Position numbers and translations under genes: made by a program. Positions 50,472-54,710 of a stretch of DNA of 64,000 nucleotides are shown here, piece after piece. Each line of letters starts with the position of its first letter. Positions within the stretch are counted from its first letter, which is position 1. The DNA lies in assembly GCF_003018115.1 (NCBI RefSeq), contig NZ_CP027457.1, one strand, 5' to 3'. Below the pieces are notes generated by a model. It was not told the origin of the DNA, did no database searches, and saw only the letters and a list, made by a program, of their open reading frames with translations. The DNA comes from Escherichia coli. Lineage in GTDB: Bacteria > Pseudomonadota > Gammaproteobacteria > Enterobacterales > Enterobacteriaceae.

Positions 50472-51911
50472 ATGTCAGTACCCGTTCAACATCCTATGTA
50501 TATCGATGGACAGTTTGTTACCTGGCGTGGAGACGCATGGATTGATGTGGTAAACCCTGCTACAGAGGCTGTCATTTCCCGCATACCCGATGGTCAGGCC
50601 GAGGATGCCCGTAAGGCAATCGATGCAGCAGAACGTGCACAACCAGAATGGGAAGCGTTGCCTGCTATTGAACGCGCCAGTTGGTTGCGCAAAATCTCCG
50701 CCGGGATCCGCGAACGCGCCAGTGAAATCAGTGCGCTGATTGTTGAAGAAGGGGGCAAGATCCAGCAGCTGGCTGAAGTCGAAGTGGCTTTTACTGCCGA
50801 CTATATCGATTACATGGCGGAGTGGGCACGGCGTTACGAGGGCGAGATTATTCAAAGCGATCGTCCAGGAGAAAATATTCTTCTGTTTAAACGTGCGCTT
50901 GGTGTGACTACCGGCATTCTGCCGTGGAACTTCCCGTTCTTCCTCATTGCACGCAAAATGGCTCCCGCTCTTTTGACCGGTAATACCATCGTCATTAAAC
51001 CCAGTGAATTTACGCCAAACAATGCGATTGCATTCGCCAAAATCGTCGATGAAATAGGCCTTCCGCGCGGCGTGTTTAACCTTGTACTGGGGCGTGGTGA
51101 AACCGTTGGGCAAGAACTGGCGGGTAACCCAAAGGTCGCAATGGTCAGTATGACAGGCAGCGTCTCTGCAGGTGAGAAGATCATGGCGACTGCGGCGAAA
51201 AACATCACCAAAGTGTGTCTGGAATTGGGTGGTAAAGCACCAGCTATCGTAATGGACGATGCCGATCTTGAACTGGCAGTCAAAGCCATCGTTGATTCAC
51301 GCGTCATTAATAGTGGGCAAGTGTGTAACTGTGCAGAACGTGTTTATGTACAGAAAGGCATTTATGATCAGTTCGTCAATCGGCTGGGTGAAGCGATGCA
51401 GGCGGTTCAATTTGGTAACCCCGCTGAACGCAACGACATTGCGATGGGGCCGTTGATTAACGCCGCGGCGCTGGAAAGGGTCGAGCAAAAAGTGGCGCGC
51501 GCAGTAGAAGAAGGGGCGAGAGTGGCGTTGGGTGGCAAAGCGGTAGAGGGGAAAGGATATTATTATCCGCCGACATTGCTGCTGGATGTTCGCCAGGAAA
51601 TGTCGATTATGCATGAGGAAACCTTTGGCCCGGTGCTGCCAGTTGTCGCATTCGACACGCTGGAAGATGCTATCTCAATGGCTAATGACAGTGATTACGG
51701 CCTGACCTCATCAATCTATACCCAAAATCTGAACGTCGCGATGAAAGCCATTAAAGGGCTGAAGTTTGGTGAAACTTACATCAACCGTGAAAACTTCGAA
51801 GCTATGCAAGGCTTCCACGCCGGATGGCGTAAATCCGGTATTGGCGGCGCAGATGGTAAACATGGTCTGCATGAATATCTGCAGACCCAGGTGGTTTATT
51901 TACAGTCTTAA
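50472..51911 (+). CDS. aldA: Lactaldehyde / glycolaldehyde dehydrogenase
   Basis: 479-aa aldehyde dehydrogenase; LELGGKAP and catalytic GQVCNCAER motifs. Confidence 0.9.
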   Translation: MSVPVQHPMYIDGQFVTWRGDAWIDVVNPATEAVISRIPDGQAEDARKAIDAAERAQPEWEALPAIERASWLRKISAGIRERASEISALIVEEGGKIQQLAEVEVAFTADYIDYMAEWARRYEGEIIQSDRPGENILLFKRALGVTTGILPWNFPFFLIARKMAPALLTGNTIVIKPSEFTPNNAIAFAKIVDEIGLPRGVFNLVLGRGETVGQELAGNPKVAMVSMTGSVSAGEKIMATAAKNITKVCLELGGKAPAIVMDDADLELAVKAIVDSRVINSGQVCNCAERVYVQKGIYDQFVNRLGEAMQAVQFGNPAERNDIAMGPLINAAALERVEQKVARAVEEGARVALGGKAVEGKGYYYPPTLLLDVRQEMSIMHEETFGPVLPVVAFDTLEDAISMANDSDYGLTSSIYTQNLNVAMKAIKGLKFGETYINRENFEAMQGFHAGWRKSGIGGADGKHGLHEYLQTQVVYLQS

Positions 51912-51919
51912 TGAGTGAA

Positions 51920-51948
51920 AGAGGCGGAGGTTTTTTCCTCCGCCTGTG
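51920..51948. terminator. Bidirectional intrinsic terminator between convergent aldA and gapC
   Basis: AGAGGCGGAGG-TTTTT-TCCTCCGCCTGT hairpin. Confidence 0.6.
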
Positions 51949-51952
51949 CGCG

Positions 51953-52954
51953 TCAGAGTTTAGCGAATTTTTCGAGGGTGCGAATAAGCTGCGTGACGAA
52001 GCCATATTCGTTATCGTACCAGGCGACCGTTTTCACCAGTTGTAAATCGCCCACGGCGGTAATTTCCGTTTGCGTGGCATCAAACACCGAACCGAAATGG
52101 CTGCCAATGATATCGGAAGAGACTATTTCTTCATCGGTATAACCAAATGACTCGTTATTGGTGGTTGCTTGTTTAAGTGCGTTATTCACCTCTTCGGCAG
52201 TCACTTTTTTTCCGAGAATCGATACCAGTTCAGTGACCGAACCTGTTTTCACCGGCACGCGTTGCGCATGACCTTTCAGTTTGCCGCTCAGTTCCGGGAT
52301 CACCAGACCAATGGCTTTTGCCGCGCCCGTAGTGTGGGGGATGATATTTTCTGCCGCTGCGCGTGAAGCACGTAAATCTTTACCACGCGGGCCATCCACC
52401 AGTGACTGGGTGCCAGTATAGGCATGAATGGTCGTCATCGTGCCGACTTCTATCCCGAAACTGTCATGCAAGGCTTTGGCCATCGGCGCAAGGCAGTTAG
52501 TGGTGCATGACGCCACGGAAACAATGGTATCGTTGCCATCCAGAGTGTCGTCATTGACGTTATAAACGATAGTTTTCATTTCACCGGCAGGGGCGGAAAT
52601 CAACACCTTCTTCGCGCCAGCATCGAGATGCGCCTGCGATTTCTCGGCGGAGGTATAAAAGCCAGTACATTCGACAATGATTTCTGCACCTTTCGCTTTC
52701 CACGGAATATTTTTAGCCTCTTTTTCGGCGTAAACCGCGATACTTTTCCCATTAACGATAAGTGAATCTTCCGTAAAATCAACGCTCCAGGGGAACGGTC
52801 CGTAGTTTGAATCATGTTTGAGCAGGTAGGCGAGAATTTTTGGAGAAGTGAGATCATTAATAGCGACAACGTCTATGTTGCTTTTGACTTCAAGTAATCG
52901 ACGCAACACCAGTCGACCGATACGACCAAAACCGTTAATACCAACTTTACTCAT
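51953..52954 (-). CDS. gapC: Glyceraldehyde-3-phosphate dehydrogenase GapC, intact reading frame
   Basis: Uninterrupted 333-aa ORF; NAD-binding NGFGRIGR and catalytic [10 protein letters not shown] motifs. Confidence 0.85.
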
Positions 52955-53142
52955 GGTTTTCTCCTGTCAGGAACGTTCGGATGAAAATTGATCCTTTCCA
53001 GGCTTAGACCAGGATTGTGGGATGGGCAATCTCCATTCTTACAGTGAAACGTAACGTACTGAAAACGGGTGAACAATATTTAATGAAATTTTGAGAAAAG
53101 CCCGTTATGTTAACGGAAAATTATGTTGAAGCAGGAAATGTT

Positions 53143-53673
53143 ATGGAAAATAAATACTCAAGGTTACAAATCGGCATTCACTGGCTGGTCTTTTTGCTGG
53201 TTATCGCAGCGTATTGCGCAATGGAGTTTCGTGGTTTCTTCCCACGTAGCGAACGGCCGCTCATCAACATGATTCATGTTTCCTGTGGCATCTCAATTCT
53301 CGTGCTGATGGTGGTTCGTCTTTTGTTAAGACTGAAATACCCAACCCCGCCGATTATACCTAAGCCGAAACCGATGATGACGGGACTGGCGCATTTGGGA
53401 CATTTGGTGATTTATCTCCTGTTTATTGCGCTGCCAGTGATTGGTTTGGTGATGATGTATAACCGGGGCAACCCGTGGTTTGCGTTTGGTTTGACGATGC
53501 CTTACGCTTCAGAGGCCAATTTCGAACGGGTAGATAGCTTAAAGTCGTGGCATGAAACGCTGGCGAATCTGGGATATTTTGTCATCGGTTTGCACGCTGC
53601 GGCTGCACTGGCACACCACTATTTCTGGAAGGACAACACACTTCTACGCATGATGCCGCGTAAACGTTCCTGA
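53143..53673 (+). CDS. cybB: Cytochrome b561
   Basis: 176-aa form starting MENKYSRLQIGIHWLVFLLVIAAY; four TM helices with conserved His; track ORF has a 12-codon upstream extension. Confidence 0.85.
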   Translation: MENKYSRLQIGIHWLVFLLVIAAYCAMEFRGFFPRSERPLINMIHVSCGISILVLMVVRLLLRLKYPTPPIIPKPKPMMTGLAHLGHLVIYLLFIALPVIGLVMMYNRGNPWFAFGLTMPYASEANFERVDSLKSWHETLANLGYFVIGLHAAAALAHHYFWKDNTLLRMMPRKRS

Positions 53674-53917
53674 AGAATATTTAAAGAAAACGCCTGTACT
53701 AAAACCGACCCGTGGTACAGGCGAAGAATACGGGTCTACATCGGAAGCGCCTATTATATTTATTTGTATGACAAATAAAACCATAATCCTTGCCCATACG
53801 TCTATCTGGCTTATTTTTAATCAATTCACCCGATCTTTGATCTCATCAACGGTATCAAAATAAACCAGCGTATAACGTTCAAATCGAACATAAGATTCGA
53901 TAAACCATGGAGGTTAT

Positions 53918-54162: not shown

Positions 54163-54370
<208 letters not shown>

Positions 54371-54710
54371 TCGTTGGCCTCGGTTGATAGAAATATCGGT
54401 CGGGGCCTTCGTCTTTCTGATTCCCGGTTAGCCTGAAAACAGAAAGTCTCAGGCACCCGCAGGCATCCTATGAGGTTTCCTTAGGGACGAAAATAATCAC
54501 TTCACGAAATTGCGTGCTGTTTTCCAGAATTTTTCGTCATTCGGGTTAGCCAGTTTAGCCATTCGTTACTCTCTTCATTCCAATAGCATTAATTTTCTCT
54601 GCAATAATTGTTGTAAAAATGTGACGCAAAGAGGTTTTTGGTCATAAGTAATTACCGTCAAGTGCCGATGACTTTCTATCAGGAGTAAACCTGGACGAGA
54701 GACAACGGTA

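Follow-up and report, generated by a model that had tools for sequence, protein, structure and literature searches.

Intact gapC in a non-K-12 Escherichia coli: a probable second GAPDH and the wild distribution of the K-12 pseudogene allele

We analysed a 64,000-nucleotide stretch of Escherichia coli DNA (the window) and found that its gapC is an uninterrupted open reading frame. Taken together, the evidence makes it very probable that this frame is the ancestral, intact allele of gapC and that it encodes a second glyceraldehyde-3-phosphate dehydrogenase (GAPDH) with conditional expression. The K-12 pseudogene would then be derived, an allele of one natural lineage with the changes R18G, K39* and delA744. 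That E. coli can carry an intact gapC is already known from a report of 1998, from the annotation of a 'gap' CDS in thousands of genomes and from biochemistry and crystal structures published in 2020-21. The features of the window that enter the argument are as follows.

51953..52954, minus strand: gapC, predicted type I NAD-dependent glyceraldehyde-3-phosphate dehydrogenase (ORF, TIGR01534, Pfam, PDB 7C5F and strain F9792; stop codon included)
50472..51911, plus strand: aldA (aldehyde dehydrogenase A), convergent neighbour of gapC (ORF list and annotation of the syntenic locus)
52507..52509 (approximate), minus strand: codon of the catalytic Cys150 of gapC (codon 149-150 region; codon 150 is gene nt 448-450)
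52838..52840, minus strand: gapC codon 39, AAA (Lys), site of the K-12 nonsense codon TAA (from the alignment, nt 115)
52211..52217, minus strand: A7 run of gapC (T7 on the plus strand), gene nt 738-744; A6 in K-12, which shifts the frame at codon 248
51922..51945, no strand assigned: GC-rich hairpin AGGCGGAGG-N6-CCTCCGCCT in the aldA/gapC spacer (from folding energy and stem conservation)
52955..53142, minus strand: gapC-cybB divergent intergenic region, with the gapC Shine-Dalgarno sequence and a presumed sigmaS-dependent promoter

The gapC locus and the aldA/gapC hairpin

The preliminary description of this DNA had presented gapC as an intact gene of 333 codons convergent with aldA, and both points hold. 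In the ORF listing of the window, the frame runs from ATG to TGA over 333 amino acids with zero internal stops, and neither this list nor the alignment to K-12 revealed an overlooked in-frame stop or frameshift in the window gene. A Shine-Dalgarno sequence, AGGAG, lies at 52961-52965 on the minus strand, 6 nt 5' of the ATG, and 41 nt separate the stop codons of aldA and gapC. The gene order of the window matches that of K-12 (hrpA-ydcF-aldA-gapC-cybB-rydC-ydcA-hokB-trg), with gapC convergent to aldA and divergent from cybB, and the order aldA-gapC-cybB is common to the window, K-12, strain F9792 and eight other genomes.

Some neighbouring features were recorded in passing. The mechanically called cybB ORF spans 53107-53673 on the plus strand (188 aa, ATG at 53107); annotated cybB in K-12 and relatives has 531 nt (176 aa) and an equivalent start at 53143, and the upstream in-frame ATG at 53107 is probably not the start used. 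Beyond cybB, as in K-12, lie the RydC sRNA (53684..53747, minus strand, 92.5 bits) and the sok antitoxin RNA of the hokB/sokB locus (54307-54458, minus strand, 111.5 bits).

Do aldA and gapC share a bidirectional terminator, as had been proposed? The spacer between them contains a hairpin with a 9-bp GC-rich stem and a 6-nt loop. Folding energies are -24.3 kcal/mol for the plus strand (aldA sense, z -3.8) and -19.1 kcal/mol for the minus strand (gapC sense, z -3.7), no shuffle folds as well on either strand, and the stem is invariant in alleles that are up to 5% different elsewhere. Thus, the part of the proposal that stands is a strong and conserved hairpin in the spacer. The canonical bidirectional form is not supported by the sequence: a consensus terminator scan of 51700-53300 called the hairpin on neither strand, and the 3' flank in the aldA sense (GUGCGCG) has no U-tract. 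In the gapC sense the flank is CUCUUUCA, a weak U-tract with 4 U in 8. Because the scan did not call the hairpin, we downgraded the term 'bidirectional terminator'. As read from its sequence and folding, the hairpin is most plausibly a putative terminator of gapC that also serves aldA as a 3'-end stabiliser or non-canonical terminator, and its action as a 3'-end or terminator element is probably stronger in the gapC sense.

GapC as a type I GAPDH

Against TIGR01534, the NCBI GAPDH-I equivalog, the gapC product scored 447.7 bits (cutoff 367.2) over profile positions 1-330 of 330, and Pfam placed Gp_dh_N (PF00044) on residues 3-102 (124 bits) and Gp_dh_C (PF02800) on residues 155-313 (195 bits). 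The two motifs named in the preliminary description were located, NGFGRIGR at residues 7-14 and the GAPDH catalytic motif at residues 148-157. Window GapC also has C150, H177, T180, T182, R232, T209, D34, R11, I12 and S120. The window ORF is a member of the type I GAPDH family, and NAD-dependent phosphorylating activity is predicted for this exact allele.

A nearly identical protein has been characterised. Window GapC matches the chains of PDB 7C5F/7C5H/7C5P/7C7K at 332 of 333 residues, N68D being the sole difference. This protein, EcGAPDH1 (Zhang et al., Biomolecules 2021, PMC8615399), is the product of the gene that, at this same locus, carries a 'gap' CDS annotation in about 79% of complete E. 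coli genomes. It shares with window GapC Cys150, His177 and the residues of the NAD and phosphate sites, and differs at residue 68, which is Asn in window GapC and Asp in the crystallised enzyme. Asn68 is also found in the gapC of strain 10035004-3, and GapA has Asn at the aligned position; judged from these sequences, N68/D68 is a natural polymorphism. EcGAPDH1 was purified and crystallised and is active and NAD-dependent, with a Km for G3P of 0.73 mM (PMC8615399). Its activity was abolished by C150A and reduced about 10^4-fold by C150S and by H177A; NAD is contacted by R11, I12, D34 and S120, and the phosphate-site residues are T180, T182, R232 and T209 (PMC8615399).

On this basis, window GapC would be a homotetrameric, NAD-dependent, phosphorylating type I GAPDH (EC 1.2.1.12), a paralogue of GapA. 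In the mechanism taken over from the one-residue-different protein, (i) the Cys150 thiolate, activated by His177, would attack the aldehyde of G3P; (ii) hydride would pass to NAD+, with Asp34 specifying NAD; and (iii) phosphate held near T180/T182/R232 and T209 would resolve the thioacyl intermediate to give 1,3-bisphosphoglycerate.

Could a GAPDH fold serve another main job here, as an Epd-like enzyme, an ArsJ partner, an NADP-dependent gluconeogenic enzyme of the GapB type or a moonlighting surface or secreted protein? GAPDH paralogues elsewhere in bacteria often divide glycolytic and gluconeogenic roles, as GapA and GapB of B. subtilis do, and window GapC does have sub-threshold similarity to the Epd and ArsJ-associated models. 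This similarity falls far under the curated cutoffs, and the score for GAPDH-I is over its own. Window GapC scored 277.5 bits with TIGR01532 (cutoff 530.55) and 280 with NF010058 (cutoff 539), the two Epd models (E about 1e-83), and 306.5 bits with the ArsJ-associated GAPDH model NF033735 (cutoff 450). Because the Epd scores are so far below their cutoffs, GapC is not an Epd, although it belongs to the same superfamily as Epd (GapB) and resembles it significantly; Epd itself is an erythrose-4-phosphate dehydrogenase and not a glycolytic GAPDH, being non-phosphorylating, using E4P and acting in PLP biosynthesis. Within the window, arsJ is not adjacent to gapC, which is flanked by aldA and cybB, and the NAD-specifying Asp34 is present. 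Moreover, EcGAPDH1 has a high turnover of G3P with NAD as cofactor (PMC8615399). We therefore consider a different main job very improbable and retain the GAPDH assignment; Epd, ArsJ-associated GAPDH and type II GAPDH identities were rejected on the curated cutoffs.

The K-12 allele and the distribution of intact and broken gapC

In MG1655, gapC (b4493, 1489713..1490713, 1001 bp) is annotated as a pseudogene, and in the K-12 derivative EC600 the PGAP annotation reads 'frameshifted; internal stop'. K-12 gapC, formerly gapC_1 (b1417) and gapC_2 (b1416), occupies the orthologous aldA-cybB locus, where it shares the hairpin with the window and has a nearly identical upstream sequence. We aligned it to the window gene, as the preliminary description had proposed, and counted 14 differences (98.6% nucleotide identity). 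Two of them disable the K-12 gene: A115T, which turns Lys39 (AAA) into TAA, and a one-base shortening of the A7 run (nt 738-744) at codon 248. K-12 gapC also has R18G, and the window allele carries none of the three changes. Thus, K-12 gapC is broken, not intact, and the account of it as split by a premature stop was right (K39*) but incomplete, since there is a frameshift at codon 248 as well. The old gapC_1/gapC_2 split is due to this frameshift in the A7 run.

How common is each state? A megablast search of 5426 complete E. coli genomes found gapC in 5417, with at least 80% coverage in 5409. We counted the K-12 stop allele by a 31-mer that matches only that allele and the frameshift by an A6-specific 38-mer, and obtained 1154 of 5426 genomes (21%) and 1049 of 5426 (19%), respectively. 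The difference may reflect about 105 genomes with the stop alone, making the stop the first lesion; possible causes of the gap between the counts are this stop-first order, polymorphism in the context of the 38-mer and assembly errors in the homopolymer. Every non-K-12-type copy retrieved, from F9792, O157:H7 Balcarce_14.2, 10035004-3, 1517k, DG351-2 and TC24, has the annotation of an intact 333-aa CDS. Intact gapC is the majority and ancestral state, found in roughly 75-79% of complete genomes, and the idea that it is an unusual trait was rejected. Conversely, about 21% of E. coli do without gapC, and the gene is therefore dispensable in at least some niches.

Other lesions of gapC are sporadic: delG418, an IS1A-associated deletion and an ISEc23 insertion. 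The first is an independent frameshift in ST648 (NZ_CP008697.1, 301-1301) that may be an assembly error. In NZ_CP144926.1 (2501-4678), an IS1A element stands in place of the 3' ends of gapC and aldA, and in NZ_CP041110.1 (1402-3031) ISEc23, of the IS66 family, is inserted in a K-12-type gapC pseudogene.

The window had been taken for non-K-12 sequence, and its relatives bear this out. Among the 5426 genomes, the best matches to window positions 40001-64000 are F6326-C1, 2014EL-1345-2, F8111-1SC3 and F9792, of the O169:H41 ETEC lineage (99.4%), and the window gapC DNA is 100% identical to the 'gap' CDS of F9792 (WP_000048684.1). Intact gapC is itself only weakly diagnostic of a non-K-12 strain because the K-12 stop allele is absent from about 79% of complete E. 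coli genomes. The match to the O169:H41 relatives is split in two, the relatives having about 324 bp more DNA, which marks an indel within these 24 kb.

Did the lesions of K-12 arise in the laboratory? Alleles with both lesions that are identical or nearly identical to that of K-12 occur in an ESBL strain from Tokyo wastewater and in Czech and German human isolates, and these wild alleles have 14-15 differences from the window, against 14 for K-12. Of the 1154 stop-allele genomes, 60 were sampled at even spacing; about two thirds of these have a recorded source in humans, pigs, poultry, cattle, dogs, frogs, fish, sewage or seawater, and their genome sizes, 4.7-5.5 Mb, are unlike that of K-12. 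With identical alleles in wild isolates, we rejected acquisition in the laboratory: the pseudogene allele is not of laboratory origin because it is widespread in human, animal and environmental isolates.

The intact allele of the bovine strain TC24 (NZ_CP171637.1, 301-1302) gives the direction of change. It differs from the K-12 allele at only three positions, R18G, K39* and delA744, all of them protein-altering and none synonymous, and K-12 gapC is for this reason the derived state. Such a pattern is consistent with an inactivation that is recent and after which constraint was relaxed. The aldA gene that adjoins gapC in TC24 is annotated with an internal stop. A separate observation concerns strain 'EcN_Sk' (NZ_CP172017.1, human stool, 5.06-Mb genome), whose name suggests Nissle 1917 and whose gapC pseudogene is identical to that of K-12; genome size and allele together point away from a typical B2 Nissle genome, or else to an exchange of the gapC locus.

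Selection, expression and the role of GapC

GapA (b1779), the housekeeping GAPDH, has the same fold, catalytic and NGFGRIGR motifs and chemistry as GapC, but the two share 47% amino-acid identity and are encoded at different loci. Reportedly (Doolittle et al. 1990), gapA belongs to a 'eukaryote-like' lineage and gapC to the typical bacterial one. The gapA gene is universal and nearly invariant (present in 5425 of 5426 genomes, with at least 99% identity in 5424); gapC, by contrast, is polymorphic, at 95-99% identity, and about a fifth of genomes have lost it. Since gapA is near-universal, strains like that of the window would have two true phosphorylating GAPDHs plus Epd. The preliminary description had suggested a third functional GAPDH besides gapA and epd. 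The additional GAPDH is supported, as a prediction for this allele, by its residues, its score above the family cutoff, its dN/dS and the activity of the N68D protein; the word 'third' applies to family members, and a second true phosphorylating GAPDH is the better count.

Selection was gauged by pairwise dN/dS between five intact gapC alleles from divergent lineages. The values lie between 0.016 and 0.056 at dS of up to 0.21, and the proteins differ by only 2-5 amino acids, which indicates that intact gapC is under strong purifying selection.

When would GapC be made? Promoter-like matches in a consensus sigma70-type scan of 51700-53300 were at chance level only, including a weak match at 53149..53120, 5' of gapC, and no promoter position was assigned because the matches are not above chance. 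The region upstream of gapC is almost invariant between K-12 and strains with intact alleles. Reportedly, Espinosa-Urgel and Kolter described in 1998 an intact gapC in natural isolates and its preferential expression in water. A passage by Espinosa-Urgel in PMC2949598 on his 1998 paper (Mol Microbiol 28:325) states that environmental isolates have an intact gapC, expressed preferentially in fresh water, and the same work is cited in a passage of PMC1796617. In K-12, ChIP-seq of sigmaS-RNA polymerase gave a peak between gapC_1 and cybB (PMC4447067), and an rpoS mutant grown in glucose-limited chemostats had 5.6-fold less gapC_1 mRNA (PMC4512719, Table 2). Literature searching for E. coli gapC expression at low temperature turned up plant papers only. 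Drawing on the K-12 transcripts and the 1998 report, we propose a conditional sigmaS-dependent promoter in the gapC-cybB region that would be on in starvation, low-temperature or aquatic conditions. GapC would then be an accessory isozyme, glycolytic or gluconeogenic, for life outside the host, and not the main GAPDH. One property of the enzyme counts against this explanation: the in vitro optimum of EcGAPDH1, near 50-55 C and pH 10 under the assay conditions of PMC8615399, is no obvious fit to the role of a 'cold-water isozyme'. The chance-level promoter matches and the dispensability of gapC in about 21% of E. coli weigh on the same side.

Alternatively, intact gapC could be cryptic, a relic that is transcriptionally silent or without physiological relevance, is heading for loss as in K-12 and is intact only because there has been too little time for decay. 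The repeated losses (the K-12-type allele in 1154 of 5426 genomes, the ST648 frameshift and the IS1A and ISEc23 events) are what such a relic would leave, as are the lack of a strong consensus promoter upstream and the universality and far higher conservation of gapA. However, the dN/dS values at the observed dS are incompatible with neutral drift across the divergence of the E. coli phylogroups, and even K-12 has an active, RpoS-dependent gapC promoter. In addition, the enzyme is fully active in vitro as the N68D variant (PMC8615399), and the secondary literature, in the passages cited above, reports preferential expression in water. We thus regard a cryptic gapC as very improbable and return to the intact gene as the probable template of a conditionally expressed second GAPDH.

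A wider reading appears to us somewhat better than even: that GapC is a condition-specific GAPDH (sigmaS, starvation, outside the host) that strong purifying selection preserves in some four fifths of E. coli; that the K-12 pseudogene (R18G + K39* + delA744) is a natural allele fixed in a large wild lineage that reaches humans, livestock, frogs, sewage and seawater; and that gapC loss is an ongoing natural polymorphism, possibly tied to lifestyle, and not the domestication decay that the literature phrases it as.

What follows for E. coli biology? As a discovery, the intact gene matters little. K-12 is atypical at gapC, and most E. coli encode a second bona fide GAPDH. The population data correct the idea that the K-12 lesions arose in laboratory passage. 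The Keio 'delta-gapC' strain JW1413, made in K-12, has been used as a glycolysis-enzyme mutant under the label EC 1.2.1.9 (PMC3080795), and any phenotype it has is not attributable to loss of GAPDH activity because K-12 gapC is a pseudogene. More generally, K-12-based metabolic models, assumptions on gapA essentiality and Keio-type inferences may not transfer to wild or B-lineage strains with an active GapC.
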